Shown: positions 3,485 to 28,089 of the stretch, piece after piece
Numbering within the stretch: the stretch's first letter is position 1
Layout: the number at the start of each line of letters is the position of its first letter
Source of the DNA: Candidatus Sericytochromatia bacterium
GTDB taxonomy: Bacteria > Cyanobacteriota > Sericytochromatia > S15B-MN24 > VGJW01
Direction of reading: 5' to 3'
DNA length: 64,000 nucleotides
NCBI GenBank assembly: GCA_035285865.1
Contig: JAYKHS010000028.1
Span: 44,044 to 108,043 of the forward strand
Made by a program: the position numbers and the translations under genes
Notes under the pieces: model-generated
What the model saw: the letters and a program-made list of their open reading frames with translations, nothing else
Told to the model about the DNA's origin: nothing
The model's database searches: none

Positions 3485-4894
3485 CTAGCGCTTCCAGAGG
3501 TTTCGCCACCACGGCTCCGGCGTCGCGGTGGTCCCGAGGCCGGCGTCGCGCCTCAGCTTGGCGGTCGACCATCCTGTCAGGTTGGCGGCCGTGCGAATCT
3601 CCTCTTCCTGACGTCGCCGCAGGGAGTCCTTGTAGGTCTTGCCCTCGGGGCATGCGGCGGGCCCTGTGAAGGGGTGCTGGAGGACGAAGCGGACCTGGAA
3701 GTTCTCGCGATCCCGGGTCTCCTGGAAGATCAGGTCTTCGGGAAAGGTTTCGGCCGAATAGCGGACGTGCAGGCGGGTTACCACCGCATCCACGGGACCG
3801 CCGCCCGGCACGGGCACGCGCCGACGGCCCGGGATCAAGCCGGGGCGTGTGTTCTCGGCACTCTCGTCGTCCAGCCACCATACGCCCAGCTGGCGAAGCT
3901 GGTCGGCGGAGAGCGGGTCCGCGGCGCAGGGATCGCACCACCCCATGTCCCAGAAGTGCTCGGTGAAGACTGCGCGCTGGTCTTCACGCTTCCACGCCGT
4001 CTCGAACATGGCCTTGTAGAACGCCTTGAAGTCCTTCTTCAGATGGACGGGAATCGTCTTGCCGGTCGGCAACTTCACCGTTCGATAGTTGGTGGTCTCG
4101 ACGCGACCCTTTCGGGTGATCGCGTAGACCAGCATGTCCTGGGGGCCCTTGGCGTTGGCCATGCCCAGCCGGATGGGCAACATGAACTTCGGGCTCTCGA
4201 AGGCGAACTGCAGGGGCCGGAGGTGCTGCAGGCCGGTCTTGGCCTGTTCGCCCAGGTTGACCTTGGCGACGAAGAACTTGTGTCCGGTGCGGATGTAGGG
4301 TGCCAGCGCCCTTCGCGCCTTTGGGGGGATTCGGTAGCCGTTCTGGCGCAGCCAGGTCTCGAGGCCCGTGGACTCCCGGGCCGACAGGATCAGGATGTCG
4401 TATTCGCCGACGGTATATTGCGCCTCGATGACGACGCCAAGCTCGGCTGACTTGCGCGCGCTGCCAGCCATCGGGGCCGCTCCTGGGGCCGAGGACATGC
4501 GTTCATCCAGCATCCCCCTGCGGCGGATGTCATTGCAGGGATCGTCGTCGAAGTACTCGACGAGGCGCGGGGCCGTGAAGGCGTCCAGATGATCGAACAC
4601 GGCGCGTTCGGCTACGTTGATCTGTTCGCGTTGCAGCACGGCGGGTACCGGCACGACCATGGCGAACTCCTTGAGCGGTCCCTTGTAGTCGCTGGCCATG
4701 CCGATCACGGTGCGGTTGCCTTCCCGGACCATCACCACCCGCGAGGTCTCGTTGTAGAGGGAGGCATCCGCCTTGGCCACATAGAACCCGCAGAAAGCGC
4801 GGGCCTCAGGCGGTGCGGCAAGGCTGGCCGCGACCAGGAGGGCTGCGAGCAGGGCGGGGCGACGGCGCTCAGGCCGGGGCGACGACGGGGGCAT
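3485..4894 (-). CDS. secreted DUF2330-family protein
   Basis: 469 aa with N-terminal signal peptide (LLAALLVAASLAAPPEARA). The FCGFYVAK motif and overall length are typical of DUF2330 proteins as I remember them. Confidence 0.55.
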   Translation of the reverse strand: MPPSSPRPERRRPALLAALLVAASLAAPPEARAFCGFYVAKADASLYNETSRVVMVREGNRTVIGMASDYKGPLKEFAMVVPVPAVLQREQINVAERAVFDHLDAFTAPRLVEYFDDDPCNDIRRRGMLDERMSSAPGAAPMAGSARKSAELGVVIEAQYTVGEYDILILSARESTGLETWLRQNGYRIPPKARRALAPYIRTGHKFFVAKVNLGEQAKTGLQHLRPLQFAFESPKFMLPIRLGMANAKGPQDMLVYAITRKGRVETTNYRTVKLPTGKTIPVHLKKDFKAFYKAMFETAWKREDQRAVFTEHFWDMGWCDPCAADPLSADQLRQLGVWWLDDESAENTRPGLIPGRRRVPVPGGGPVDAVVTRLHVRYSAETFPEDLIFQETRDRENFQVRFVLQHPFTGPAACPEGKTYKDSLRRRQEEEIRTAANLTGWSTAKLRRDAGLGTTATPEPWWRNLWKR

Positions 4895-12996: not shown

Positions 12997-14967
12997 TTGG
13001 TGTCCGGAGGCAACATGTCCGACTCAACCCCGCGCCGTTCGCGCCCGGCTGCCGCCGAATCACCGGATGCGTGGCTGGATCTGCTGACCCGCCTCGTCCA
13101 TCTCGACCTGCGCTGCCTTGGTATCCGGCGCGAGCTTCGACGACAGGCAGAGGCGCTCCAGATGGGAGACCTGCGGGCACCTGCACGAGCTGCGGGGCCG
13201 CTGCGAGATGAGCTGTCGGCGCTCGAGGCCGATGCCGTTCATCTGCGCCAGCTTCTGCCCGAGCAGCCTCGGCTCGAGCGTCTGCTCGAATACCTGGGGC
13301 TGGGGGACGATGGCCGTCACCTGCTCCACCTCATGTTGGTGTGGGATCGCATCGAGGCTCGCTCCATGGTCCTGTCCCAACTCGGGCCGCTGCGGCGTGC
13401 CGGCCGCGCGGCACATCTTCGGTCCGACCATCTCGTCGTCTGGCTGGATCGGGGTGGTCCGCCGACTGGACGCCACGCCACCCTGCTGCACGCAGACCAT
13501 CCGATCTGGGCCTCGGGCGTAGTCGAGCAGAATCGCTCGGGCGTGCATATGTCCGACATCGTCAGGACGTGGTTGCTCGGGGCGGATTGTCCGGGCTTGA
13601 CTGTGATGCGCCGCATCGGCCGTCCGGGTTCCGGGTTGCCGGGCCGTCTCGTCGTCGGTTTGCGGGAGTTGCTCTCGGGGGCCGGACCGCTCGTGCCCGT
13701 GGTCCATCTGCAGGGCTTCGCCGCAGAGCGCGCCGAACAGTTGCTGCGTTCTGCCTGGCGTGGCGTCACGGTCGTCCGGCTCGACTGGACCGTGCGTCCT
13801 GATTTCACCGCAGCTGGCCTTGCCGCGCCCGTGCGCGAGGCATGGGTCCACGCGGCGCCCTTGGTCGTGCTGCTGCCGGCATGTCCGCGCACCGGGTCCG
13901 ATCGGCAGACCATCCAGGACGTCATCCGATTCCAGATCGAGGCCCGAAGGCTCGCGGTTCCCCTGGTCCTCGTGACGCCTCCGGGTGGCATCTCGTTCCT
14001 GCCCCTGCTGCCACACGCCGCGACGCTTCTGCCCGAGTCCGGGGGTTCGCGGTCCGGCCTCCGCGACCACGCTGCGCGTCCCGTCCCGGATGCACGCCGG
14101 CAGGCGTATCCGTTCGAGGAGGGTCCTGCGGTGGCCACCCGGACTGGGCGCAAGCGTCGTCCTGCGCGCCCCGTGGCTGCAGAGGGCCCGACGCTCGCGT
14201 CTCTCGTCCTCGCACCGGATCTGCGCGAACAGGTGGAAGAGTTGTGCTTTGCCGCCAGGGCCGGGGCCGAAAGGCTGTCGGCCGTGCGCCTCGGACCTGC
14301 CCCGTGGGGCAAGGCCGTGGTGGCGCTGTTCGCCGGCCCCCCGGGGACGGGCAAGACGCTGCTGGCGACCGCGCTTGCCCAGCACTTGGGGCGACCGCTT
14401 GTGACCCGGACGCTGGGGCAACTGCTGGACAAGTTCGTCGGTGAGTCCGAGAAGCAGGTCGAGGCTCTGTTCTCGGAGGCACGCGAGCAAAATGCCGTGC
14501 TCTTCCTCGACGAAGTCGATGCCATGCTGGCTGCCCGTGGGGGGCACGCGCTACAGCGTCACGATGACCGCCTGGTCAACCACCTCCTCGTTCTCCTCGA
14601 GGCGCATGAAGGCCTCGTGCTCATGGCCACGAACCGTGCGGACATCCTCGATGAGGCCGTGCGCAGGCGCGTGATGTTCACGCTGACGTTCCGAGACCCC
14701 GGACCCGTGGAGGTCGAGGCGCTTTGGCGCCTTCATCTCGCACACCCGGACCTGCCGCTGGCCCCGGACCTGGACTTGACCGGCCTCGCCAGACGCTATC
14801 CCTTGCGGGGCGGCTATATCCTGCAAGCCTGCCGCAAGGCGGCCATACGTGGAGCGATGCGCGGCGAGACCATCGATCAGGCCATGCTCGAACATCTGGC
14901 TGCCGAGGCCTTTCAGCAGGCGGGAACGGGACGCGGCCGGCCGATGGGGTTCGGCCGGGGCGCCTGA
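12997..14967 (+). CDS. AAA+ ATPase with a large N-terminal domain of unknown function
   Basis: C-terminal AAA module: Walker A GPPGTGKT, Walker B VLFLDEVD, sensor-1 ATNR, arginine region RRRV. About 400 N-terminal residues have no recognised family. An alternative start lies at MSDST (13015). Confidence 0.8.
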   Translation: MVSGGNMSDSTPRRSRPAAAESPDAWLDLLTRLVHLDLRCLGIRRELRRQAEALQMGDLRAPARAAGPLRDELSALEADAVHLRQLLPEQPRLERLLEYLGLGDDGRHLLHLMLVWDRIEARSMVLSQLGPLRRAGRAAHLRSDHLVVWLDRGGPPTGRHATLLHADHPIWASGVVEQNRSGVHMSDIVRTWLLGADCPGLTVMRRIGRPGSGLPGRLVVGLRELLSGAGPLVPVVHLQGFAAERAEQLLRSAWRGVTVVRLDWTVRPDFTAAGLAAPVREAWVHAAPLVVLLPACPRTGSDRQTIQDVIRFQIEARRLAVPLVLVTPPGGISFLPLLPHAATLLPESGGSRSGLRDHAARPVPDARRQAYPFEEGPAVATRTGRKRRPARPVAAEGPTLASLVLAPDLREQVEELCFAARAGAERLSAVRLGPAPWGKAVVALFAGPPGTGKTLLATALAQHLGRPLVTRTLGQLLDKFVGESEKQVEALFSEAREQNAVLFLDEVDAMLAARGGHALQRHDDRLVNHLLVLLEAHEGLVLMATNRADILDEAVRRRVMFTLTFRDPGPVEVEALWRLHLAHPDLPLAPDLDLTGLARRYPLRGGYILQACRKAAIRGAMRGETIDQAMLEHLAAEAFQQAGTGRGRPMGFGRGA

Positions 14968-15975: not shown

Positions 15976-17274
15976 TTGCCGTCACGCCGCGAGGGGGTGA
16001 GGGCCATCGGCGAGGAGAAGACCGAGCCCGCGACAGACCACAAGCGCCAGGAAGCGCGTCAGCGTGGTCAGGTCCTCAAGAGCCAGGACGTCATCATCGC
16101 CGTGCTGCTTTTTGCCGTGGCCTACAGCCTCGGGGCGCTGGGCGGTTTCTGGTACAAGACCCTTTACGGCTACGTCCTCGAGACCATCGAGTCTGTTCCT
16201 TCCCATGCCGCACTCGACTTCAACCTTGCGATGCGGCTCGTAGGCAAGGGCCTGCTGGTCGTCTTCATGTGCTCGGCTCCGATTGCCGCCATCGCATTCC
16301 TGATGACGTGGCTGGCGAACCTGCTGCAGGTCGGCGTGCTGTTCACCACCAAGCCCCTGTCCTTCGAAGAGGGCATCAAGAAGCTCAACCCGATCGCCGG
16401 CTTCAAGAAGATCTTCTCGATGAAGCAGGTCATCGAGGTTATCAAGGCCTTCGTCAAGATCATCGTGATCGGCTGGGTGATCTATGGCGTCATCCGCGAT
16501 GCACTCGGCGTCATCCTGAGGTCGACGGAGATGCATCCCGCAGGGGCTCTGGGCTTTGCCGGAACCCTGATCGAGGCCATCGGCAAGAAGGTGGCTCTCG
16601 CCATGGTGCTGATTGCCGTCCTCGACTACTTCCTGCAGCGCTGGCAGTACGAGAAGTCGCTGCGCATGAGCCACAAGGAGATCAAGGAGGAATACAAGAA
16701 GCTCGAGGGGGATCCCCTGGTGAAGGCCCGTCAGCGCCAGAAGCAGATGGAGATGGCCATGAGCGCGATGCGGGGCAATGTCGAGATGGCCGATGTCGTG
16801 GTCACGAACCCCACGCACCTTGCCGTTGCCTTGGCCTACAAGCCCACGCAAGGCATCCGGACGCCCAGGGTCGTCGCCAAGGGCCAGGACAGGGCGGCAC
16901 TTGAGATCCGGCGCATCGCGCAGGAGAACTTCATCCTCGTGGTCGAGGACATCGACGTGGCCCGGACGCTCTATGGTCAAGTCAAGGTCGACCAGGACAT
17001 CCCTCCCGAACTCTTCCAGGCGGTGGCAAAGATCATCGCGCTGCTCTTCAAGGGGCGGCGACGTCCTGGCCCCGTGCGGCCGGGTGCCGCTGCCCCGCCA
17101 CCGGCACCGACCGCCATCGACTTTCTGGGTTCGGGGCCTCGGCTTGACGAGGCCGAAGTGGCGGCCATGGCCGACGCAGCGCAACGCGAACTTGAGCGCA
17201 TGGCCCGGGAGCAGGAGAGCCTGCGTCTGCCCCCCCCGGACGATGGACCGACATCGCCCGGCGTTCCGGTGTGA
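15976..17274 (+). CDS. flhB: FlhB/YscU-family export-apparatus switch protein (full length, with Pro-rich C-terminal extension)
   Basis: N-terminus EKTEPATDHKRQEARQRGQVLKSQDV. Four TM segments. Autocleavage motif NPTH (VVTNPTHLAVAL). C-terminal extension rich in P/A. Confidence 0.8.
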   Translation: MPSRREGVRAIGEEKTEPATDHKRQEARQRGQVLKSQDVIIAVLLFAVAYSLGALGGFWYKTLYGYVLETIESVPSHAALDFNLAMRLVGKGLLVVFMCSAPIAAIAFLMTWLANLLQVGVLFTTKPLSFEEGIKKLNPIAGFKKIFSMKQVIEVIKAFVKIIVIGWVIYGVIRDALGVILRSTEMHPAGALGFAGTLIEAIGKKVALAMVLIAVLDYFLQRWQYEKSLRMSHKEIKEEYKKLEGDPLVKARQRQKQMEMAMSAMRGNVEMADVVVTNPTHLAVALAYKPTQGIRTPRVVAKGQDRAALEIRRIAQENFILVVEDIDVARTLYGQVKVDQDIPPELFQAVAKIIALLFKGRRRPGPVRPGAAAPPPAPTAIDFLGSGPRLDEAEVAAMADAAQRELERMAREQESLRLPPPDDGPTSPGVPV

Positions 17275-17349
17275 GCAGGTGAGGCGAGGGGTAGGGAACC
17301 CCTAGTCCTTCCGGTTCGTCATCGGGTGGAAGGGTGGAGGTTTCCGAAG

Positions 17350-18474
17350 ATGCACCTCTTGCGCAGGTCCCTGTTGTCCGCTCTGTTTGCCGCAGGCCTC
17401 GGGGTTTCCAATGCCGGCCCCGCCTGGGCCGGGCAGCTCGCGGACGCACGTCGCCACATCGAGCGCGAGGACTACAGACGGGCCATCGACGTCCTTGCCG
17501 AGTACACTCAGAAGTTTCCCAATGAGCCCCGGGGCTGGGCGCTGCTCGCCGACTGCTACCAAGGCATCTTTCCCCCGCGGGTCTCGGATGCCGAGGATGC
17601 CTTGAACCGGAAGGCCGCCGCCGAGAACAAGCGCAGCGCCATCTATCAGAGCTTCCAGAAGCTGGAGGCATCCGCGCTGTATCAGAAGATGATCAAGGAC
17701 GATCCGGAAGATCCGGTGGCGAACCTGCTGCTGGCGATTGCCCTCGTGGTGAATGACCGCGATGGCAATCGAGCCAAGGTTCAATTGGAGCGTTTCCTTG
17801 AGTTGGGGGGGGCGTCGGCCGATCTCGCGGACGCCGCGCTGGGCGCCCAAGGTCTGGTTTACACCGCGACCAAGCAGTGGGATGAGGCGCGCCTTGCTTA
17901 TGAGCGCCTGAAGCAGCGCACGGGCAGCACCTTTGCCATGGTCAAGCTGCGTGAGGTGAGCCGGCTCGAGGCCGAAGATCGGGACGCCCGGTATGCGGCT
18001 GCAAACGACCCCGCGCGGGTGGCGGAGCGGCGCTACCTCCAGCTGATCGAGGGTGCCAAGGGCCTGATTGCCGAGGGCAACAGCTCGGGGGCGGTAGACC
18101 TGCTGGAAGAGGCTGTCAAGCTGCGTCCGGAGGGCAAGGAGGCACCTCCGCTTCTGGACGAGGCTCGCATCCAGGGTGCCAAGGAGATGTTTGCCAAGGG
18201 CAAGCAGCTGACGGACGACAGCAAGTACGCCCAGGCATACGGATGTTTCGAACGGGCCATCCAGCTCGATCCGACCAACGAGGATGCCGTGCTCGGCTTG
18301 AAGCACGTTCAGAAGAGCCTGTCGGAGCTCGAGGGTCCCAAGGTGGTTCGGCGGATCATCAGTGCGACGGAAAGCGTCGAGGCCTCCGCTTCCGTTCCGC
18401 CCTCTCCCTCCGTGGTGGTGACGCCACCGGCCAAGCCGCCCGCGAAGGGGCCGGCCAAGCCGGCGGGCAAGTAG
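17350..18474 (+). CDS. secreted TPR-repeat protein
   Basis: Signal peptide (LLSALFAAGLGVSNAGPAWA). Several TPR-like helical repeats. Lys/Pro-rich C-terminus. Confidence 0.6.
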   Translation: MHLLRRSLLSALFAAGLGVSNAGPAWAGQLADARRHIEREDYRRAIDVLAEYTQKFPNEPRGWALLADCYQGIFPPRVSDAEDALNRKAAAENKRSAIYQSFQKLEASALYQKMIKDDPEDPVANLLLAIALVVNDRDGNRAKVQLERFLELGGASADLADAALGAQGLVYTATKQWDEARLAYERLKQRTGSTFAMVKLREVSRLEAEDRDARYAAANDPARVAERRYLQLIEGAKGLIAEGNSSGAVDLLEEAVKLRPEGKEAPPLLDEARIQGAKEMFAKGKQLTDDSKYAQAYGCFERAIQLDPTNEDAVLGLKHVQKSLSELEGPKVVRRIISATESVEASASVPPSPSVVVTPPAKPPAKGPAKPAGK

Positions 18475-18527
18475 ACAGGACCGTTGGCCCGGTGGCCTTC
18501 CGTCACCGGGCCAACGACCTCCTGCGT

Positions 18528-21206
18528 TCAGCGTTGGGCTGCTGCGGTGCCTTCGGCTTCAATGACGGCATGTGCCGCCGCCAGCCGGGCGATGGGTACC
18601 CGGTAGGGCGAGCAGCTCACGTAGTCGAGGCCCAGGCCGTGGGCAAAGGCGATCGAGGCGGGATCGCCCCCGTGTTCGCCGCAGATGCCCGTCTTGAGGT
18701 TCGCGCGCGTGGCCTTGCCGCCCTGCATCGCGAACCGCATCAACTGGCCCACGCCTTCCGTGTCCAGGACCTGGAAGGGGTTCGCGGGCAGCAGCTTGTG
18801 CTCCAGGTAATGGAACAGGAAGCTGCGCTCGGCGTCATCACGCGAGTAGCCCCAGGTCATCTGTGTCAGGTCGTTCGTGCCGAAGCTGAAGAACTCGGCA
18901 TCCTCGGCCAGTGTGCCGGCGACGAGCGCTGCGCGCGGCACCTCAATCATCGTGCCGAACAGCACGGGCACCGTCATGCCACGGCGCGCCTGGACCTCGG
19001 CCGCCACCTGCTCGAGCTGGGCCTTGGCAGCTTTGAGCTCGGCAGGGTGGCCGACGAGCGGCACCATGATCTCGGGCGCGCAGCGCAGACCTTCGGTCAG
19101 GACATCACAGGCCGCATCGAGGATGGCCCGCACCTGCATCGTGTTGATGTCGGGGCGCGTGATGCCGAGTCGGCATCCCCTGAGGCCCATCATCGGGTTG
19201 ACCTCGTGCATGGACTCGATCTGGCGAAGCATCCGCTGCTTTTCGGTGATCTCGTGGGCCGGGGCGCCGACGGCACGCAGGGCCGAGAGTTCCTCGTGCA
19301 ACTTCGTCGCGTTGGGCAGGAACTCATGCAGCGGGGGGTCGAGCAGGCGGATGGTGACAGGGTAGCCCTGCATCGCCCGGAAGATGCCCACGAAGTCCTG
19401 GCGCTGGAAGCCTTCCAGCGTGGCGAGGGCTGCCTGGCGCTCCTTCTCGGTGGCGCCCAGGATCATCTGCTGGACCACGGGCAGCCTGTCCGGGGCGAAG
19501 AACATGTGCTCCGACCGGCACAGGCCGATGCCCTCTGCACCGAATGCCCGCGCGCGCTCGGCGTCGTCCGGCGTATCGGCGTTCGCCCGAACCCCGAGGC
19601 GACGGGTCTCGTCAGCCCAGCGCATGATCTGCTGGAACTCGGTGCTGGGCTCCGGGGGAAGGGTCGGAACCAGGCCCCTGAGGACCTCTCCCGTCTCGCC
19701 GTTGATGGAGACGGCATCCCCCTTGTGCAGCACGGTGCCGTCCGGACACGTCAGGGTTCCTGCCTGCACGTCCACTTGCAGGGCTTCGCAGCCGACGACG
19801 CAGGGCTTGCCCATTCCCCGGGCGACGACGGCAGCATGGCTGGTGTTGCCACCGCGGCTCGTCAGCACGCCCTTGGCGGAGATCATGCCGTGGATGTCGT
19901 CCGGACAGGTCTCGGGCCTGACGAGGATGACCCCCTTGCCTTTCTCGGCCCACGCCACGGCCTCGTCCGGATCGAAGACGATCACGCCGCCGACCGTGCC
20001 AGGCGAGGCGGCAAGACCAGTGGCCAGAACTTCCGGGCTGAAGGAAGGATCGAGGCGCGGCAGCAGCATCTGGATGACGTGACCGGCATTCAGGCGCCGC
20101 ACGGCCTCGCGGGGCGTGATCAGGCCCTCACGGTACATGTCATGGGCGATGCGGGCTGCGGCAGCACCCGTTCGCTTGCCGTTGCGGGTCTGCAGCATGT
20201 AGAGGCGACCACGCTCGATGGTGAACTCGAGGTCCTGCATGTCCCGATAGTGGGTTTCCAGCATGCGGGCGACCTGGCGAAGTTGCGCCGCGGCCTCGGG
20301 AATCGTCGCGTCCAGTTCGTCGATGGGGCGGGGGGTCCGGATGCCGGCGACGACGTCCTCGCCTTGCGCGTTGGTCAGGAACTCGCCGTAGAGGCGTGCC
20401 TCGCCGGTATTGGGGTTGCGGGTGAAGCAGACCCCCGTGGCAGAATCCTCGCCCATGTTGCCGAAGACCATGGCCTGCACGTTCACCGCCGTCCCGAGGT
20501 CGTTGGGGATGCCTTCATGGCGGCGATACGTGACAGCCCGATCGCTGTTCCAGCTCCGGAAGACGGCCTCGATGGCCATCTTGAGCTGCTGCCAGGGGTC
20601 CTCGGGGAACGGGATTCCCAGCTCTCGCTCCACCAGGGCGAGGTAGGCTTCGGCCACGTCCTTGAGCGTCGCGGCATCGAGATCCGTGTCCAGCTTCGCG
20701 CCGACCTTGTGCTTGTACTGCTCCAGCAGGTACTCGAAGTTCCCGAGGCGCAGGCCGAGAACGACATTGCTGAACATCCCGATGAAGCGGCGGTACGCAT
20801 CCCACGCGAATCGGGCATTACCGGTCTGCTCGGTGACACCGGCGACGGTCGCACGGTTCAGTCCGAGGTTGAGGATCGTGTCCATCATCCCGGGCATCGA
20901 GAACTTGGCACCGCTCCGGACGCTGACCAGAAGGGGGTTGGCCGGATCCCCGAAGCGCTTGGTCGTGGTCTTCTCGACCTCGACCATCGCCTGGCGGATT
21001 TCGTCCTCGAGACCGTCGAGCTTGCGGTCGCCGCTTGCCAGGTAATCGAGGCAGACGGCCGTCGTGATGGTGAAGCCGGGCGGCACGGGCAGGCCTTGCG
21101 CAGCCATCTCGGCGAGGCCGGCGCCCTTGCCTCCCAGCAGGTCTCGGGACAGGCCCCTGCCGTCGCGGAAAAGCACGACACGGCGAGTGTCGGTCACTGT
21201 GGACAT
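18528..21206 (-). CDS. ppdK: pyruvate, phosphate dikinase
   Basis: About 890 aa. N-terminal PPDK nucleotide-binding region (GGKGAGLAEM...GLPVPPGFTITT). Central phosphohistidine region (GGNTSHAAVVARGMGKPCVVG). C-terminal PEP-utilising TIM barrel. Confidence 0.9.
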   Translation of the reverse strand: MSTVTDTRRVVLFRDGRGLSRDLLGGKGAGLAEMAAQGLPVPPGFTITTAVCLDYLASGDRKLDGLEDEIRQAMVEVEKTTTKRFGDPANPLLVSVRSGAKFSMPGMMDTILNLGLNRATVAGVTEQTGNARFAWDAYRRFIGMFSNVVLGLRLGNFEYLLEQYKHKVGAKLDTDLDAATLKDVAEAYLALVERELGIPFPEDPWQQLKMAIEAVFRSWNSDRAVTYRRHEGIPNDLGTAVNVQAMVFGNMGEDSATGVCFTRNPNTGEARLYGEFLTNAQGEDVVAGIRTPRPIDELDATIPEAAAQLRQVARMLETHYRDMQDLEFTIERGRLYMLQTRNGKRTGAAAARIAHDMYREGLITPREAVRRLNAGHVIQMLLPRLDPSFSPEVLATGLAASPGTVGGVIVFDPDEAVAWAEKGKGVILVRPETCPDDIHGMISAKGVLTSRGGNTSHAAVVARGMGKPCVVGCEALQVDVQAGTLTCPDGTVLHKGDAVSINGETGEVLRGLVPTLPPEPSTEFQQIMRWADETRRLGVRANADTPDDAERARAFGAEGIGLCRSEHMFFAPDRLPVVQQMILGATEKERQAALATLEGFQRQDFVGIFRAMQGYPVTIRLLDPPLHEFLPNATKLHEELSALRAVGAPAHEITEKQRMLRQIESMHEVNPMMGLRGCRLGITRPDINTMQVRAILDAACDVLTEGLRCAPEIMVPLVGHPAELKAAKAQLEQVAAEVQARRGMTVPVLFGTMIEVPRAALVAGTLAEDAEFFSFGTNDLTQMTWGYSRDDAERSFLFHYLEHKLLPANPFQVLDTEGVGQLMRFAMQGGKATRANLKTGICGEHGGDPASIAFAHGLGLDYVSCSPYRVPIARLAAAHAVIEAEGTAAAQR

Positions 21207-21290
21207 CGTTGTCTCCTCAGGTTGTCGGCCGCGCATCATCGAGCGGTCGGGTCGGTGGGTTATTGGGCAGCAATGAGGCTGCCGGTGGTT

Positions 21291-22190
21291 CTAGACGTAG
21301 GTTTCCTTGCGTTGGGTCAGTTCGAGGATTTCCGCGGCCGTTTCTTCGATGGCCTTGTGCGTCACGTCCACCACGGGACAACGCAGCTTGCGGAAGATGG
21401 TTTCGGCATAGTCGAGCTCGTCCGAGATGTGTTGGGCGCTGGCATAGGAGGCCGAACCCGTCAGGCCCAGGTTCTGCAGGCGCTGGGTGCGGATGTCTTG
21501 CAGCGTCGCGGGGTTCAGCGTCAGCCCGATGACGCGGCCCGCAGGCAGGGCGAAAAGTTCCTTGGGAGGTTGCACGCCCAGCACGAGTGGCACGTTGCTG
21601 GTCTTCAGGCCCCGGACCTGAGCGAGGTACATGCTGGTCGGCGTCTTGGACGTGCGGCTCACGCCGACGAGCACCAGATCGGCGAGGGCCAGGCCCTTGG
21701 GGTCCTTGCCGTCGTCGTACCGGATGGCGAACTCGATGGCTTCCATGCGGTTGAAGTAGGCTTCGTCCTTCTGGTGGAGCAGCCCGGCCTCGAAGTGGGG
21801 CTCGGCACCCAGGATGAGGCCCAGGACATTGATCAGAGCACCCAGGATATCCACGGTCGGGATGCCCTTGCGCTTGGCCTCGGCCTGCAGGGTTTCTCTC
21901 AAGCGCACGTCGACGATGGTGTAGGCCAGCACGCAGCGTGTCTGGGTGGCCAGCGTGACCATGCCGGTGATCTGCTCGATCGTTCGGGCGCGAGGCAGGC
22001 GCACCAGCTTGATGGGGTGGCCCTTGAACTGCAGGGCAGCCGCGCGCGCCACGAGCTCGGCCGTCTCTCCCGAGGCGTCCGAGACCGTGTAGACGGTCAA
22101 CGTTGCCCCATCCACAGCTGTTCCTCCGGGCCGCAAGGCCCAGTGGCATGCTATCGCCCGCGCCCCGGGTGCGTAAAGCATGGCGGGCAT
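21291..22190 (-). CDS. pyruvate, phosphate dikinase regulatory protein (bifunctional kinase/pyrophosphorylase, DUF299/PSRP)
   Basis: TVYTVSDASGETAE N-terminal signature. P-loop-like GVSRTSKTPTS. Located directly downstream of ppdK. The true start may be an internal GTG/TTG near VDGATLTVY. Confidence 0.8.
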   Translation of the reverse strand: MPAMLYAPGARAIACHWALRPGGTAVDGATLTVYTVSDASGETAELVARAAALQFKGHPIKLVRLPRARTIEQITGMVTLATQTRCVLAYTIVDVRLRETLQAEAKRKGIPTVDILGALINVLGLILGAEPHFEAGLLHQKDEAYFNRMEAIEFAIRYDDGKDPKGLALADLVLVGVSRTSKTPTSMYLAQVRGLKTSNVPLVLGVQPPKELFALPAGRVIGLTLNPATLQDIRTQRLQNLGLTGSASYASAQHISDELDYAETIFRKLRCPVVDVTHKAIEETAAEILELTQRKETYV

Positions 22191-22213
22191 TGTGAGAAGA
22201 GGGACTGCGGGGT

Positions 22214-22717
22214 ATGGAAGTTCAGGATGGTAACTTCCCCATGACCGAACGCCACGTCCTTAGCCGCCTCATCATCACGGAGGAGCTTGGTGCCCTCATG
22301 ACGCAGCAAGTCACCGAGCTTGCTGCGGAGGAGTCGATCGTGGGCTGCGCTGTTCTGGACGCCAGCGGCCTTACCTTGGCGCATGCCGGCGAGGGTCGGA
22401 TGGGAGACCCCGGCGTGGCGGCGCTGGTTGCCGCGTCCTTCCGAACCCTTGCGGAGCTTGCGAAGATGACGGGTGAGAATGCCCCCCAGACTTTCGTGTT
22501 GCCCGGAGTCGACACGAGGACCCTGTGTTTCCGGCTCGAGTCGGGTGACTTCCTGATCGTTCAGGCCACGGCAGCGACACCTGTCGAGGAGCTTGAGGCC
22601 ACCCTGCTTCCGGTGGAGCACGATCTCGGGGCCGCGCTGACGACGGCGCGTCTGGGGCCCGCTCCGGAACCGCTGCCTGACGCCTCGGCCCTCGACAACC
22701 TCTTCGGCGATCTCTAG
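22214..22717 (+). CDS. mglB: Roadblock/LC7-domain protein, MglB-like (putative GTPase-activating partner)
   Basis: Roadblock-like core (ESIVGCAVLDASGLTLAHAG...FLIVQA). C-terminal tail LPDASALDNLFGDL closely resembles the MglB C-terminus (...DDDIDNLFSE). Immediately upstream of the MglA-like gene, as in myxobacterial mglBA. Confidence 0.7.
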   Translation: MEVQDGNFPMTERHVLSRLIITEELGALMTQQVTELAAEESIVGCAVLDASGLTLAHAGEGRMGDPGVAALVAASFRTLAELAKMTGENAPQTFVLPGVDTRTLCFRLESGDFLIVQATAATPVEELEATLLPVEHDLGAALTTARLGPAPEPLPDASALDNLFGDL

Positions 22718-22726
22718 GCGATTCCG

Positions 22727-23308
22727 GTGGCCGTCCTCCACTACGGCAGGCGAGAGATCCGCTCCCGGGTGGCCTATTTCGGTCCCGTGGGCTCGGGCAA
22801 GGCCTCGAATCTCTTGGCGTTGCAGGACCTCTGGCCCGTTGAGCGCCGGGGAGCCGTCGTCGAGGCGACCCCGGAAAGCGAACGCGCCGTGCGTTGTTTG
22901 CGCCTGCCCATGCTGGGTGACCCGGTCGGCGACTGGTCGGTGCGGTTCGAGGCCTTCACGGTGCCCGGGCAGGCCCAGTTTCCGAGCACGCGGGCGAATC
23001 TGCTGGCCGGCGCCGACGGAGTCGTTTTCGTGGCCGACGCCGCCCCTGCCAGAAGAGAAGCGAACGTCGCCGCCTGGCACGAGTTGTTGGTCCACGTCGT
23101 GGCACAGGGCATCGATCCCGAGCGGATGCCCATCGTCATCCAGATCAACCACGCCGATGTCCGCGACGCCTTGGGCGTGGGGGAGATTGCGTCGCAACTC
23201 GGGGTCGAAGTCCGCCCTTCCTTCATGGCCATCGCCCGGGACGGCAGAGGTGTGCTCGAGGCCTGGATGGCAGTCGAGGGCCTGATCCGCATGGACTGGC
23301 GTTCATGA
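22727..23308 (+). CDS. mglA: MglA-like small Ras-family GTPase
   Basis: 193 aa. Aligns along its whole length with M. xanthus MglA: YGRREIRSRVAYFGPVGSGKASNL vs [24 protein letters not shown]. Conserved Arg (ESERAVRC). FTVPGQ. VDGVVFVAD. IVIQINHADV (NKxD-like). The P-loop reads GKA instead of GK[ST]. Confidence 0.85.
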   Translation: MAVLHYGRREIRSRVAYFGPVGSGKASNLLALQDLWPVERRGAVVEATPESERAVRCLRLPMLGDPVGDWSVRFEAFTVPGQAQFPSTRANLLAGADGVVFVADAAPARREANVAAWHELLVHVVAQGIDPERMPIVIQINHADVRDALGVGEIASQLGVEVRPSFMAIARDGRGVLEAWMAVEGLIRMDWRS

Positions 23309-25245
23309 AGGCCGCCTCCTCTGGCATCGGCAGCGCCCGGCCAGGCAATCTGTGGCGCGAGGCCGACGGACTGTACGACTTCATGAGCCGTGCGGTTCTC
23401 CTGCTGGTCGCCGAGCTCGATGATGCCGACGTGGCCTTCATGGTGCGGGAGGACCCTTCGCTGCCGTGGCGGGTGTCTGCGTCCCGTCCCGAATGGGAGG
23501 CCCAGTTGACGATGGCCTCGATGAGCGGTTTGCTGGCCGGCGTTCCGGCGCAGGGCTTCGAGGGATGGCAGGTTCGCGATCTGGAAGTCGAGAAGCCCGT
23601 GGCTGCCCGGCTGCTGACACGGGGCCCGGCACCGGCACAGGAATCCTGCGATGGCCTGGCGGCCGGCATCTCCCTCGTCATCGCACGGGACCGTCTGGCT
23701 CGGGCGGATGCCGGCATCGGCGAGATCGGGCGGGTGGTCCAGGCCTTGCGCCAGTTGGCTTCCAACATCCACCAGGCCGAGGATCTTTCGCTGCTGGCCG
23801 AGGTCGTCTGTGCCTCGGTGGCTCGTGCCACGGGCGCAGAGGTGGTGGCGCTCTACCAGCTCGAGGGCGATGCCTTCCGATTGACCGAGGAAATCGGCGT
23901 GCATCGCCCGGGCGTTTCCGGCATGGCGGCTGCACTGGCTGCATCGCTTGCGCCGCGGCAGCCCATTCCCCGGGATGAGGCGGGCTTTCTCTCCCAGGCG
24001 CTTTGGGAGGGGCGTCCGGTGGCCATTCCCAATATGGCGGCTGCTGACGGCGCGCGTGTCGGGCTTGGCCATTTGGGGCTGATGTCCGCGATGGCGGCCC
24101 CGCTGCTGACGCCTCTGGACGACTTGGGCGTCCTGCTCGTGGGCAGCCGTGCACCGCGCCTCTTCAGTCCGACCGAATTGTCCGAGTTGTCCGAGCTGGC
24201 CCAGGCGGCGTCGGGAGCCTTGCTGACGTGGCGGCTCCACGCGCGTGCCCAGGAGGAGTCGCGCAAGGCCAGCGAGCTCATCGCCCGGTTGCATGACCTG
24301 ACGCGCGCGACCCGTGAGGTCGGCAAGACGCTTGAGGCCAAGCACGCCTGCGAGGCCTGCGTGCGCCTGCTCCCGCAGTTCATGCGCCCTGCGGAGTGGG
24401 TTGATTGCTACCTCATCGAGGGCGACGCATGGCGGCTGGTGGCTGGCTCCAGTCCGCAGGACGCCAGCCCTCCCGAGTCCTGGCTCTACTACCTTGATCG
24501 TTCGGGCTATCCGCCGTCCTTGCGGCTCGAGTCCGATGCGCTGGCGGGCACCGGATTCGAGGATGCCGGACAGGTCCTGCTGTTTCCGATGCGCATGCAG
24601 CAGACCCTGCTTGGCCTGGTCGTCGTGGCGACGGAGCGCGACCTTGCCATGACCGGTCGGGACATGGCCGAGACGCTGGTGGCCCATGCGGCGTCGGCAG
24701 TCTTCAATGCCGAGCAGTGGCGACGGGCGCATGAGCGATCTATCACGGACCCGCTCACGGGGGTCCACAACCGTCGGCACTTTGTCGACGTCTTCGAGCA
24801 GGAACTGGCCAAGGCCGCCCGTTATCACCGGGAGTTCAGCGTGATTCTGCTCGACATCGATCACTTCAAGATGATCAACGATCGCCTGGGTCATCTGGCC
24901 GGGGACCAGATCCTGCGCGAGGTTGCGGCCCTGTTGCGCGACAACGTGCGCAAGGTCGATCTGGTCGCGCGCTACGGTGGGGAAGAATTCGCGTTGCTGT
25001 TGCCGGAGACCGGGGATGATGGTGCTCGTGCACTGGCCGAAAAGTTGCGGCATCGTTTCGAGGCACATCCCTTCAGCGACCAGGATCTGATGCCCGGGCG
25101 ACAGGTCACGGCCAGTTTCGGGCATGCCTCCTTTGGGCTGGACGGCACGACTGCCGAGCAGCTGCTGCAGGCCGCGGACGAGGCTTTGTATGCCGCCAAG
25201 CGGGATGGCAGGAACCGGGTAGGTTCGCCGTCGAGGAGAGCGTGA
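23305..25245 (+). CDS. GAF-domain-containing diguanylate cyclase (GGDEF)
   Basis: Two GAF-like regions followed by a GGDEF domain with intact active site (RYGGEEFALLLPE) and DxLTG region (ITDPLTGVHNRR). ATG overlaps the mglA-like stop (ATGA). Confidence 0.85.
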   Translation: MKAASSGIGSARPGNLWREADGLYDFMSRAVLLLVAELDDADVAFMVREDPSLPWRVSASRPEWEAQLTMASMSGLLAGVPAQGFEGWQVRDLEVEKPVAARLLTRGPAPAQESCDGLAAGISLVIARDRLARADAGIGEIGRVVQALRQLASNIHQAEDLSLLAEVVCASVARATGAEVVALYQLEGDAFRLTEEIGVHRPGVSGMAAALAASLAPRQPIPRDEAGFLSQALWEGRPVAIPNMAAADGARVGLGHLGLMSAMAAPLLTPLDDLGVLLVGSRAPRLFSPTELSELSELAQAASGALLTWRLHARAQEESRKASELIARLHDLTRATREVGKTLEAKHACEACVRLLPQFMRPAEWVDCYLIEGDAWRLVAGSSPQDASPPESWLYYLDRSGYPPSLRLESDALAGTGFEDAGQVLLFPMRMQQTLLGLVVVATERDLAMTGRDMAETLVAHAASAVFNAEQWRRAHERSITDPLTGVHNRRHFVDVFEQELAKAARYHREFSVILLDIDHFKMINDRLGHLAGDQILREVAALLRDNVRKVDLVARYGGEEFALLLPETGDDGARALAEKLRHRFEAHPFSDQDLMPGRQVTASFGHASFGLDGTTAEQLLQAADEALYAAKRDGRNRVGSPSRRA

Positions 25246-26018
25246 GCGTGGGCGATCAGTGGAAGAGCTCGGGACCCTTGCCGCCCGGTCAGACCGGCAA
25301 GCTTCGCGGCACGGGGACGCAGCGCCTCGCTTCTGGCGATGCCGTACAGGTCTCCGCCGGCGTCACCGCAGGAGGGGTGCCTTGGGATCGGGCTGCCATC
25401 GAGCGAGCCGGAGAGCTGGCTGTCCTCGTGGCGATGGGACGGCGCCTTCTGGCGGATTACGCCCGCCCGCTCGAGGCACTCAGGCTGGTGCTGCAATTGT
25501 TGCGTCCGGATGCGGATGCCGGCGGGCTCCTCGCCCACTACGGCGAGGCCGAGCGGGGCTATCTGGAGGGCCTCGTCCGGCATGTGTCGCCCAAGGCTGA
25601 CCTTCGTCGCCGCATGGAGATGGCCGGCTTGCAGATGGAAGGTGCCCGGCAGGGCATCGAGGACTTCGCCCGTCGCCTCGACGAGGCCTTGGTCTATCTC
25701 GGGGACGAGGGCATGTCCGCTTTTCGGGACCTGCGCACGGAGAGCCTGCGGGGTGTCCTGCATCCCGTCACGGTCCTGCATGCTGCCTTCGAGGCCGACT
25801 CCTACCTGCGCGAGCTGTTCCCGCCTCCGCGCATCAAGCTGCCGACGGGCACCGGTCCGCTTGTCGCCCCCGCCACCGCCACTGCCGTTCCTGTCCAAGA
25901 GTCGGTGCAGCCCCAGCGATCCGTGACCGGTGGCTTGGGCCAGGCCCTAGGCGACGGCCTGGGGCGTTTCGTTCGCAGTGCGACCCAGAGCCTTCGGCCG
26001 CCCAATCACCCCGGCTGA
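25242..26018 (+). CDS. hypothetical protein, GTG start overlapping the GGDEF stop
   Basis: 258-aa ORF with protein-like composition. Its GTGA overlap with the preceding stop suggests it is the fourth gene of the mglB-mglA-GGDEF operon. Confidence 0.5.
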   Translation: MSVGDQWKSSGPLPPGQTGKLRGTGTQRLASGDAVQVSAGVTAGGVPWDRAAIERAGELAVLVAMGRRLLADYARPLEALRLVLQLLRPDADAGGLLAHYGEAERGYLEGLVRHVSPKADLRRRMEMAGLQMEGARQGIEDFARRLDEALVYLGDEGMSAFRDLRTESLRGVLHPVTVLHAAFEADSYLRELFPPPRIKLPTGTGPLVAPATATAVPVQESVQPQRSVTGGLGQALGDGLGRFVRSATQSLRPPNHPG

Positions 26019-26033
26019 ATCTGACCTGCTCTT

Positions 26034-26816
26034 TCAGGGACGGAGGAGGCGCATCGTCAGGATGCTGCCCTCATAGAGGAGCAACAGCATCCCGGCCATC
26101 ATGACCTGGGACAGCACGTCGGGCGATGGGGAGATCACGGCCCCGAGAATGAAGGCCCCGAGAATGGCCGGCCGCCGGAATGCAGTCAGTTGGCGCCATG
26201 TCACGAATCCGGCAAGGCCAAGCGCAACCAGGACGACTGGCAGTTCGAAAACCACGCCCGTGGCGAAGAGGAACAGCGCACAGAAATCCAAGACGGAGGC
26301 GACCGTCAGCATCGGCATGATGCTGGTCGGGGTGAAGGCGACCAGAAATTGGAAACCGATGGGCAGCAGGGCGAAGTAGGAGAAGGAGAGTCCGGCGGCG
26401 AAGAGGACCACGGCCCCGATGACGAGCGGCACGGCCAGACGCCGCTCTGCCGGCTTGAGGCCGGGTCTGATGAAGGCCATGACCTGCCAGAGGATGACCG
26501 GCAGCGCGACCGTAAGGCCTCCCAGGCCCGACATGTGCAGGGTCGCGAGGAAGTATTCGGCCGGACGGGTGGTCACCAGTTTGCCAAGGCCGCCAAGGGG
26601 ACCCTCGACCGGGGCCAGCACCAGCGGGATCAGTTGATCGTGCAGGCCGAAACAGCCTAGGAAGCCGACCACGAGGGCCGCGATCGAGACGAGCAGCCGA
26701 TGGCGCAGCTCTTCCAGATGCTCGACAGGACTCATCTCGCCCTGTTTGCGCCGCGGTTCGCTGGCCGCCGGGGTGGTCACGGCGGGTGAAGGAGTCAGGG
26801 GCGCCTGAGGTTCCAT
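26034..26816 (-). CDS. tatC: twin-arginine translocase subunit TatC
   Basis: 260 aa from MEPQAPL. Six TM helices. TatC signatures EHLEELRHRL, FxFAT-type motif (ALFLFATGVVFELPVV), and PD.S/GM.LL C-terminus (SPSPDVLSQVMMAGMLLLLYE). Confidence 0.85.
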   Translation of the reverse strand: MEPQAPLTPSPAVTTPAASEPRRKQGEMSPVEHLEELRHRLLVSIAALVVGFLGCFGLHDQLIPLVLAPVEGPLGGLGKLVTTRPAEYFLATLHMSGLGGLTVALPVILWQVMAFIRPGLKPAERRLAVPLVIGAVVLFAAGLSFSYFALLPIGFQFLVAFTPTSIMPMLTVASVLDFCALFLFATGVVFELPVVLVALGLAGFVTWRQLTAFRRPAILGAFILGAVISPSPDVLSQVMMAGMLLLLYEGSILTMRLLRP

Positions 26817-27424
26817 GACTGTCGCGATCCGTGCTTGGGGGGGCGCATGTGGCTCATGATGCGCCGCATGCGGCCGGGACCGGAAGAGGGTTCCGCGAGA
26901 AAGCGCACGGCAAATGTCTGATGGCCGACCTTGCGCAGGACGCGGATACGCTCTTCGAGCGCGCCGTCTCTCAACTCGAGCGTCACCGAGACGTCCTTGC
27001 CGACCGGCAGCGAGACGGGGCTGTGGAGCAGCATGCCGCCGCTGCTGACGTTCAGGGTGTGGCCTCTCGCCACGGCGCGCTCGAGCCTGAGGATGGCCGG
27101 GACCATCGCATCGAGACGCAGGGCGCCACGCTGGTCCCGGGAGGCCAGAGGGGCCGTTCCGGGCCTGGCTTTCCCGAGACCGAACTCGGGCAGAGCGGTT
27201 CGTATCTCCAGACGCTGACGCGCATGGATGAGCGGGACCTCGACAATGCCGGTCTGGCCATTGGGCCAGGTGATGACCACGTGGTCGGGCATCTCGACCG
27301 GTACGGGGAGTGCAAGCGTCACCTGACCCGCCATCACGGAACGGACCTGACCCTTGAGCAACAGCGGGCCCCACTGGACGTGGACCGGTTGTCCCGCTTC
27401 GAGGGGAACTCCGTCCGGGGTCAC
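26795..27424 (-). CDS. PilZ-domain protein (putative c-di-GMP receptor)
   Basis: RxxxR motif (ARQRLEIR) followed about 40 aa later by the (D/N)xSxxG motif (LNVSSGGMLL). 209 aa. Confidence 0.55.
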   Translation of the reverse strand: MTPDGVPLEAGQPVHVQWGPLLLKGQVRSVMAGQVTLALPVPVEMPDHVVITWPNGQTGIVEVPLIHARQRLEIRTALPEFGLGKARPGTAPLASRDQRGALRLDAMVPAILRLERAVARGHTLNVSSGGMLLHSPVSLPVGKDVSVTLELRDGALEERIRVLRKVGHQTFAVRFLAEPSSGPGRMRRIMSHMRPPKHGSRQSWNLRRP

Positions 27425-27987
27425 GGCTGGGGATGCTGGCTGGGCTCGATGAGCCCGTAGTTGCCGTCGCGCCTGTGGTAGATGACGGCAAACTGGCCTG
27501 TCAGCCGATTGTGGAAAGTCAGGAAGTCCTTGCCCGAGAGGTCGAGCTGATAGGCGGCATCTTCGGGGGCGAGGTCCAGCACGACGGCGTCGCGGATCCG
27601 AACGATCTGCGGAGCTTCGTCCACTTGCGTGGGTTCGATGGCGGCTTCCTCGGCCACGACGGCAACCGTCTTGGTCCGGGCGTGGCGCCTGTCCTCGAGG
27701 CGCTGCTTGTGGCGCTTGAGCTGTCGGGCAATCTTGTCCGAAACCAGATCGATCGACGCATACATGTCCGTCGAGGCTTCCTCGCCCCGAATCAGGGTGC
27801 CGTTGGCATGCAGCGTCACTTCCACGATCTGGTTCTCGGAAACGGACGGGTTGCGGATGACCGTCAACTCCACATGGGCTTGGCGGATGTCCTCCATGAA
27901 ATGGGTCACGCGGCCCAGTTTTTCGCGGGCGTAATCCTTCAGGGCGTCCGTGATGACGATGTTCTTGCCCTTGATCACCAGTTCCAT
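27421..27987 (-). CDS. hpf: ribosome hibernation promoting factor (long HPF)
   Basis: MELVIKGKNIVITDALKDYAREKLGRV N-terminus typical of HPF/RaiA. C-terminal extension as in long HPFs. Confidence 0.85.
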   Translation of the reverse strand: MELVIKGKNIVITDALKDYAREKLGRVTHFMEDIRQAHVELTVIRNPSVSENQIVEVTLHANGTLIRGEEASTDMYASIDLVSDKIARQLKRHKQRLEDRRHARTKTVAVVAEEAAIEPTQVDEAPQIVRIRDAVVLDLAPEDAAYQLDLSGKDFLTFHNRLTGQFAVIYHRRDGNYGLIEPSQHPQP

Positions 27988-28089
27988 CGGCAGGGTCCTC
28001 GCGGCGTGGGTGGGAGTCGGAAGAGGGGCGTGGCCCAGGCTAACCGTCGGGACCGGCCGACACAAGGCCCGGACCCCCGGCACGCCGTC

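Follow-up and report, generated by a model that had tools for sequence, protein, structure and literature searches.

The window examined here is a 64,000-nucleotide stretch of contig JAYKHS010000028.1 (positions 44,044 to 108,043) from Candidatus Sericytochromatia bacterium, and it contains, between 22214 and 26018, four consecutive + strand genes for an MglB-like Roadblock protein, an MglA-like small G protein, a diguanylate cyclase (DGC) and a protein without recognisable family, here called X. The best-supported explanation of this block is a lineage-specific Sericytochromatia operon, in the order mglB-like, mglA-like, dgc and X, that couples a G-protein pair to a DGC carrying sensor domains; functional coupling inside one operon is likely. 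MglA and MglB are the model system of bacterial cell polarity, and the switch between motile and sessile life is controlled mainly through cyclic di-guanosine monophosphate (c-di-GMP).

As for the layout, gene 1 (mglB-like) is found at 22214..22717; its longest open reading frame (ORF) has 167 aa, and the true start is probably not 22214 but the ATG at 22241, which gives 158 aa, because the orthologues begin at the equivalent residue. Gene 2 (mglA-like, 22727..23308) has a GTG start and encodes 193 aa, gene 3 (dgc, 23305..25245) encodes the DGC of 646 aa, and gene 4 (X, 25242..26018) encodes 258 aa from a GTG start located inside the stop overlap of the DGC gene. Genes 1 and 2 are separated by 9 nt; as read from the sequence, ATGA at 23305-23308 joins genes 2 and 3, and GTGA at 25242-25245 joins genes 3 and 4. 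The G+C at the third codon position of the four ORFs is 0.78-0.84, a value expected in this genome, so that all four are considered real coding sequence; the G+C of the window is 64-71% along its entire length. A terminator scan found none between the genes of the block, and the three sites detected in the region compare with 2.1 expected by chance; the RNA 3' of gene 4 folded no better than shuffled sequence. Genes 1-4 are predicted to be co-transcribed as one operon.

The promoter of the block is presumed to lie upstream of gene 1, in the ~140 bp (22101..22240) that separate it from the divergent gene of the PPDK regulatory protein (- strand, probable TTG start at 22100), and a promoter scan of this upstream region found no sigma-70 consensus. 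In the gene calls of L001, a locus of the same clade, the PPDK regulator has 269 aa and gene 1 158 aa, with a 138-bp gap between them. A 1333-aa ORF at 18243-22244 (+), antisense to the ppdk and PPDK-regulator genes, runs into the start of gene 1 and represents not a gene but a shadow ORF of the kind usual in high-GC DNA.

The block is conserved in relatives of the window. It occurs in the same clade, at L001, L003 and the JGI metagenome loci L092 and L093, with the stop/start overlaps kept, and in a divergent sister clade of Sericytochromatia (L088/L089, L090 and L091), found through a search with the sensor region of the DGC; a metagenome scan with an alignment of the DGC N-terminal part returned 3 loci only, all in the groups already found. 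The sister-clade DGC shares 48-50% identity with that of the window, and the genes of the block are spaced there by 0-124 nt. The GTPase of this clade is canonical, with the motifs GPGFCGKT, ETERT, TVPGQ and NKRD, and it has 54% identity with Myxococcus xanthus MglA; for this reason, the pairing of true MglA/MglB proteins with this DGC is ancestral. The window GTPase shares just 30-34% identity with its syntenic counterparts of the sister clade, and the flanking housekeeping proteins share 54-76% between the clades; the window-clade G protein has evolved very fast after the ancestral association, losing key motifs. The whole neighbourhood is collinear, with PPDK and its regulator upstream of the block and TatC, PilZ, HPF, SpoVS, YmdB and RNase Y downstream, and in L088 the block is contiguous despite Fic and PG_binding insertions upstream and extra genes downstream.

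Regarding the G protein, the product of gene 2 is 100% identical to the hypothetical protein VKO64_11415. Its search against PDB with phmmer matched four MglA entries (E 5e-30), gap-free over MglA residues 1-188, and the alignment covers the bacterial insertion between G1 and G2. The hallmarks of Group-1 MglA, as defined by Wuichet and Sogaard-Andersen, are the G3 motif TVPGQ and an intrinsic arginine (PMC4316618); gene 2 has TVPGQ at 22958-22972 and Arg53, the residue after this Arg being Ala in place of the G2 Thr, and it adjoins an MglB-like gene that ends 9 nt upstream, Group 1 being also defined by the presence of mglB within four genes. On these sequence features, gene 2 is assigned to the MglA family, as a small G protein of Group-1 type.

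The remaining motifs of gene 2 are degenerate: the P-loop GPVGSGKAS (22781-22807) has GKA in place of GK[S/T], switch I (22880-22891) reads ERAV in place of ERT, and G4 (23147-23158) reads NHAD in place of NKxD. The window protein keeps Lys25, Arg53, Gln82 and both the Asn and the Asp of G4. GKA and NHAD occur in all three GTPases of the window clade; the G2 Thr beside Arg53 is Ala in the window protein, Thr in P0002 and Ser in P0003, and the orthologue from L003 has GKAA and TIPGH, with the catalytic Gln changed to His. These changes are not sequencing errors, because the same ones recur in independent assemblies. An exhaustive HMMER search with gene 2 in a library of 1.84 billion protein representatives found 4344 relatives, and just one cluster exceeded 42% identity; among the 154 closest proteins, the P-loop GK[T/S] is present in 148 and the G4 NKxD in 144, while GKA and NHAD together occur only in the three Sericytochromatia proteins.

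Gene 2 is the fastest-evolving gene of the block in the window clade, with 59% identity between the window and L003 versus 68-77% for the others, and no assembly has frameshifts or stops in it. The ratio of nonsynonymous to synonymous substitution rates (dN/dS) is 0.11 versus L001 and 0.23 versus L003, with 0.06-0.14 for the neighbours, values to be read as rough because dS is saturated (~1-2); in view of this ratio, gene 2 is not a pseudogene and it is still under purifying selection. Substitutions at the equivalent positions, S17 in Ras and T26/27 in MglA, disable nucleotide handling. With Thr gone from both the P-loop and switch I, and Lys from G4, a normal GTP/GDP switch is doubtful in the window protein, and the window-clade GTPase is probably a non-cycling, pseudo-GTPase-like subunit and not a classical switch.

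As for gene 1, its assignment comes from profiles, as the Pfam matches of the window protein to Robl_LC7 (E 1e-3) and LAMTOR5 (E 2e-4) are both below threshold, and the single sequence has no match in PDB. The profile of five orthologues from both clades has MglB structures as its top eight PDB matches, followed by dynein Roadblock; the best of the eight is M. xanthus MglB, with an E-value of 1.4e-5 and nearly full length. A reference profile of MglB was built from the ORFs immediately upstream of 60 canonical MglA genes: gene 1 scored 15-18 bits against it with hmmsearch, and hhalign gave a probability of 90% over residues 22-115. The orthologue from the sister clade matches Robl_LC7 with E 1e-4. 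The AlphaFold2 model of gene 1 from the single sequence had a predicted local distance difference test (pLDDT) score of 41, too poor for a fold search, and the order of its secondary structures fits a Roadblock. The protein ends with an acidic C-terminal tail, ALDNLFGDL, encoded at 22688-22714; this tail, PDASALDNLFGDL, is kept in both clades and resembles those of MglB proteins encoded beside canonical MglA genes, for instance DDIDNLFS and SLDKLFGPL. In MglB, the C-terminal helix binds an allosteric pocket on MglA (PMC6785124). Within the window clade, the dN/dS of gene 1 is 0.06-0.10. Because the orthologue profile, the hhalign result and the conserved acidic tail all point to MglB, gene 1 is classified, at the level of sequence, as a Roadblock protein of the MglB family.

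Gene 3 has a GGDEF domain at residues 480-638 (24742-25218), identified with PF00990 (E 8e-50) and TIGR00254 (E 9e-53); the active site GGEEF corresponds to residues 558-562 (24976-24990), the I-site RKVD, of the RxxD type, to residues 549-552 (24949-24960), and both motifs are intact in 6/6 DGC orthologues. The sensor region comprises three parts. Residues 1-157 (23305-23775) would form a small GAF-like or Roadblock-like domain followed by a long helix; when modelled with seven homologues (pLDDT 81.5), they gave two N-terminal helices, a beta-beta-alpha-beta-beta core and the long helix, and the structure search with this model was ambiguous between GAF and Roadblock. The possibility that this domain is an MglB-like Roadblock by sequence was tried and rejected, the hhalign probability being 0.1%. 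Residues 160-306 (23782-24222) are a GAF domain according to Pfam, and residues ~307-470 form a middle domain that has no match in Pfam or in the PDB sequence search. Of the sensor parts, the latter is conserved best, at 84-94% identity inside the window clade and 56-60% between clades, and it may be the true binding site for a ligand or a partner. The N-terminal domain is instead the fastest-evolving DGC part in both clades, with 65-66% identity versus 78-90% elsewhere; no support was obtained for its co-acceleration with the degenerate GTPase, because its pace in the sister clade is the same. A crude hydrophobicity scan gave no obvious transmembrane segment, and gene 3 is predicted to encode a soluble, catalytically competent DGC with sensor domains.

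Gene 4 has no Pfam or NCBIfam family and no homologues outside this lineage; for the four gene products together, these two libraries gave no informative match other than those given here. Its core of ~150 aa is conserved in both clades, with ends that are poorly conserved and gap-rich; identity with the sister clade is 34-38%, the dN/dS is 0.11-0.13, and a Shine-Dalgarno-like sequence, GAGGAGAG, is found upstream of its start. In the sister clade, a paralogue of gene 4 (27% identity, E 2e-18) lies directly downstream of the first copy, at 9796-10566 in L088 and at 3293-3988 in L090, whereas the window clade has one copy. Gene 4 is best described from its sequence as a conserved, lineage-specific protein.

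These results bear on a first-pass annotation of the same DNA, which had described the four + strand ORFs with their ATGA and GTGA overlaps, a Roadblock/LC7 protein with an MglB-type tail, an MglA-like protein along its whole length and a fourth gene without recognisable family; coordinates, overlaps, structure matches and the empty family searches all agree with it, and the comparison of gene order in relatives, which it had proposed, found the block intact in two divergent Sericytochromatia clades. Its GAF-GAF-GGDEF architecture for gene 3 agrees with these results in the GGDEF domain, the GGEEF site and one GAF; for a second GAF, which would correspond to residues ~307-470, Pfam and the PDB sequence search gave no support. 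Its proposal that a Ras-like GTPase switch may directly gate c-di-GMP synthesis is weakened, because normal cycling is doubtful in the window protein; GKA, ERAV and NHAD had been overlooked.

Right after the block, at 26034-28083 on the - strand, tatC, a PilZ-domain gene (26795-27424) and hpf (27421-28083) are packed tightly. Both motifs for c-di-GMP binding are intact in the PilZ protein, RxxxR as RGALR and NxSxxG as NVSSGG; its gene is beside the block in every locus that reaches past it, with 32% identity between clades, and the protein is a candidate for reading the DGC product locally. Upstream of the block by 4-6 kb, at 15976-18474 (+), flhB (PF01312, E 4e-112) is followed by a gene for a TPR protein, and this pair is kept in related loci from metagenome-assembled genomes; flhB shows that the organism possesses genes of a flagellum. 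Among the window ORFs scanned, up to ~32 kb, none was recognised as a RomR, Frz or type IV pilus gene. Other neighbours are unrelated, namely those at 1919-3475 (-), 3485-4894 (-) and 12997-14967 (+), which encode a SelO protein adenylyltransferase, a DUF2330 protein and an AAA ATPase with a long N-terminal region, respectively.

Regarding the way in which the coupling could work, it is proposed tentatively, as somewhat short of probable, that the Roadblock/G-protein complex physically controls the cyclase, by recruitment or allostery, with a G protein that would cycle in the sister clade and be pseudo-GTPase-like in the window. The Roadblock dimer and the G protein would form a complex able to bind the N-terminal sensor region of the cyclase, where the small GAF/Roadblock-like domain and the very conserved middle domain are the candidate docking sites, and this binding would determine the site or the timing of activity in the cyclase dimer. 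The c-di-GMP produced may then feed local receptors, for example the PilZ protein encoded 0.8 kb away, and act on polarity or motility. The ancestral form, as seen in the sister clade, would contain a canonical MglA cycling between GTP and GDP, and in the window clade the G protein, deprived of the contacts with Mg2+/phosphate and with guanine, has most likely become a non-cycling regulatory or adaptor subunit and not a timer. What favours this proposal is the tight packing of the genes, with the 9-nt gap, the two 4-nt overlaps and no terminator-like site, along with the block being intact in both clades beside differing flanks, the canonical MglA of the sister clade, GKA and NHAD throughout the window clade, the purifying selection on the degenerate GTPase, the GGEEF and RxxD motifs kept in all DGC orthologues, the fusions of MglA-like domains to other signalling enzymes and the precedents of conservons and Rup GTPases; the contact between the proteins, the direction of the control and the output of the block are steps that we infer.

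Physical gating may also be dispensed with, the main alternative, possible if rather unlikely, in which the cyclase belongs to the same pathway, upstream of or parallel to the MglA/MglB module, and the operon ensures co-expression only; the possible routes are the allocation of polar landmarks or the control of a pilus or flagellum. The DGC DmxA, with two GAF domains and a GGDEF, indeed acts in the allocation of RomR, MglB and MglA (PMC11255338), and in Bdellovibrio c-di-GMP proteins are part of the RomR/MglA hub, yet MglA did not bind CdgA directly (PMC3983030; PMC11025332); the PilZ gene with intact motifs conserved beside the block, and flhB 5 kb upstream, fit such a pathway as well. However, the translational coupling through 4-nt overlaps and the integrity of the block where its flanks have changed suggest stoichiometric partners, and a GTPase that is degenerate yet constrained ill fits a free-standing polarity oscillator, which needs GTP cycling.

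At the other extreme is a more committed form of physical control, judged unlikely, in which the MglA-derived G protein and the Roadblock protein would be dedicated subunits of the DGC, a "G-protein-coupled cyclase" with a cycling version in the sister clade and a constitutive, pseudo-GTPase version in the window. If true, it would parallel in logic the control of adenylyl cyclase by G-alpha.

Synteny could also have been inherited without any coupling, the MglA-like gene of the window clade being a decaying relic that stands beside the DGC gene by chance. The loci are all collinear from the PPDK regulator to HPF, the GTPase is the block gene that evolves fastest, its catalytic Gln is His in one orthologue, and GGDEF genes are not adjacent to canonical MglA genes elsewhere (0/80 loci, see below). 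This possibility is nonetheless distinctly improbable: a relic would hardly lack frameshifts and stops, keep a dN/dS of 0.11-0.23 and have GKA and NHAD fixed across three lineages, and the start/stop overlaps are kept, in a block that is contiguous where the flanks have been remodelled.

Finally, that the window GTPase is still a working switch with non-canonical chemistry (for example, with Ser27 or water replacing Thr26 and His142 stacking on the base), gating the cyclase as first proposed, is very improbable: Lys25, Arg53, Gln82 and the Asn/Asp of G4 are retained, MglB and its tail are well conserved, and the G4 Lys is also missing from MglA proteins of Groups 2 and 3, of which CvnD9 (Group 2) is nonetheless an active GTPase (PMC4316618); against this, the window protein has Ala in place of Thr26 of the P-loop and Thr54 of switch I, the two residues whose hydroxyls coordinate Mg2+, and GKAA and TIPGH in L003 indicate that Ser27 and Gln82 are not conserved in the clade.

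Canonical MglA genes of other phyla served as a background: 80 such loci, with 30-39% identity and flanks of up to 8 kb, were obtained by scanning contigs with an alignment of three GTPase sequences, a set dominated by the family-wide motif DGVVFVAD and devoid of close relatives. A GGDEF gene was adjacent to canonical MglA in 0/80 of these loci, and one locus alone had any GGDEF gene, 6 kb off and on the opposite strand. The linkage of mglA with GGDEF is lineage-restricted and not a general trait of MglA. Several points weigh against the Roadblock/G-protein complex as a physical controller of the cyclase: the carriers of the block belong to two clades only, from few samples, which leaves too few sequences for a covariation analysis; the conserved gene order is weak evidence alone, because the entire neighbourhood is syntenic; and the divergence of the DGC N-terminal domain is not specific to the degenerate GTPase, as it is equally fast in both clades. 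A further point is the saturation of dS.

Fusions of MglA domains to enzymes occur elsewhere. In most of the closest relatives of gene 2 (P0006-P0154), which are 300-1400 aa long, the MglA domain is N-terminal and the tail proline-rich; this fusion class seems large and little described. No GGDEF fusion to an MglA domain was found in the 154 closest proteins (BLASTP) or in the 105 longer ones (Pfam). Among these 105, three have a Ser/Thr kinase (P0043, P0087 and P0096) and three have histidine-kinase domains; P0062 is an MglA domain fused to GAF-HisKA-HATPase. Because MglA-like domains are fused to signalling enzymes elsewhere, the wiring of a G protein to an enzyme is a recurring design. Separately, a distant MglA-like gene (38% identity) occurs in L006 (1696-7282) among PatA_N (PATAN) proteins, an MglB-sized ORF and cheR/cheB, an arrangement that agrees with the reported association of PATAN proteins with MglA of Groups 1 and 5.

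In conclusion, an operon with a true MglA, its Roadblock partner and a predicted-active DGC offers a defined four-protein system in which to study G-protein control of second-messenger synthesis, and its canonical and degenerate versions would illustrate how a small GTPase becomes a pseudo-GTPase and retains its partners, of which bacteria offer few examples. The block is confined to a few uncultured Sericytochromatia and we infer every functional step; as regards control of c-di-GMP by a G protein, it gives a good lead and not proof.

As for known systems, the first-pass annotation had regarded such a wiring as apparently undescribed. This stands for the operon itself, as neither an mglBA-GGDEF operon nor MglA in Sericytochromatia was found described in the literature searched, but not for the broader idea, since links between GTPases and c-di-GMP have been published for Rup, DmxA and Bdellovibrio. 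No DGC is known, to our knowledge, to be contacted directly by MglA.

The block shares with the mglBA operon of M. xanthus and Thermus thermophilus, where MglB is the Roadblock GTPase-activating protein of a Group 1 MglA, the order mglB then mglA, the homology of the GTPase over its full length, TVPGQ, the Arg and the acidic tail of the Roadblock protein. It differs in that the DGC gene and gene 4 follow mglA, and in the absence of the P-loop Thr and the G4 Lys from the window clade, to which the window adds the loss of the switch-I Thr.

Conservons combine a Group 2 MglA (CvnD) with a histidine kinase (CvnA), a Roadblock protein (CvnB) and the DUF742 protein CvnC (PMC4316618; PMC13343842). 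Like the block, this conservon/AGPS arrangement has four genes in one operon, in which a sensor-type enzyme and a protein of unknown function accompany the Roadblock protein and the MglA-family GTPase; the differences are the histidine kinase and the Group 2 GTPase (GTPGQ, NxFD) there, in contrast to the GGDEF cyclase and TVPGQ with Arg here, along with the actinobacterial phylum and another gene order. The identification of the block as a conservon was rejected, since HisKA, HATPase_c and DUF742 are absent from the four genes and G3 is TVPGQ; the likeness is in the layout only.

The genes of Group 1 Rup GTPases lie beside a fusion of DGC and phosphodiesterase domains or beside a histidine kinase, and the pair is predicted to form one signalling system (PMC4316618). 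The common trait is a gene for a small GTPase of the Ras superfamily that adjoins the gene of a c-di-GMP enzyme; however, Rup proteins are not of the MglA family and never occur coupled to MglB, and the enzymes that partner them carry another N-terminal region, in which a Gln is invariant. Gene 2 was rejected as a Rup GTPase, its best structure homologues being all MglA and an MglB gene being adjacent.

Finally, in M. xanthus the DGC DmxA, made of a transmembrane domain, two GAF domains and a GGDEF, is needed for the symmetric allocation of RomR, MglB and MglA (PMC11255338); in Bdellovibrio, the degenerate GGDEF receptor CdgA is bound by RomR and by an MglA-binding TPR protein (PMC3983030), and DgcB is near the RomR hub (PMC11025332). 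What these systems have in common with the block is a functional tie between the MglA/MglB polarity module and a GAF-containing DGC or other c-di-GMP proteins. DmxA is anchored to the membrane and acts upstream, through the allocation of RomR, whereas the window DGC has no obvious transmembrane segment in the crude scan; and while the genes of both systems are unlinked to mglBA, that of the window DGC is in the same operon.

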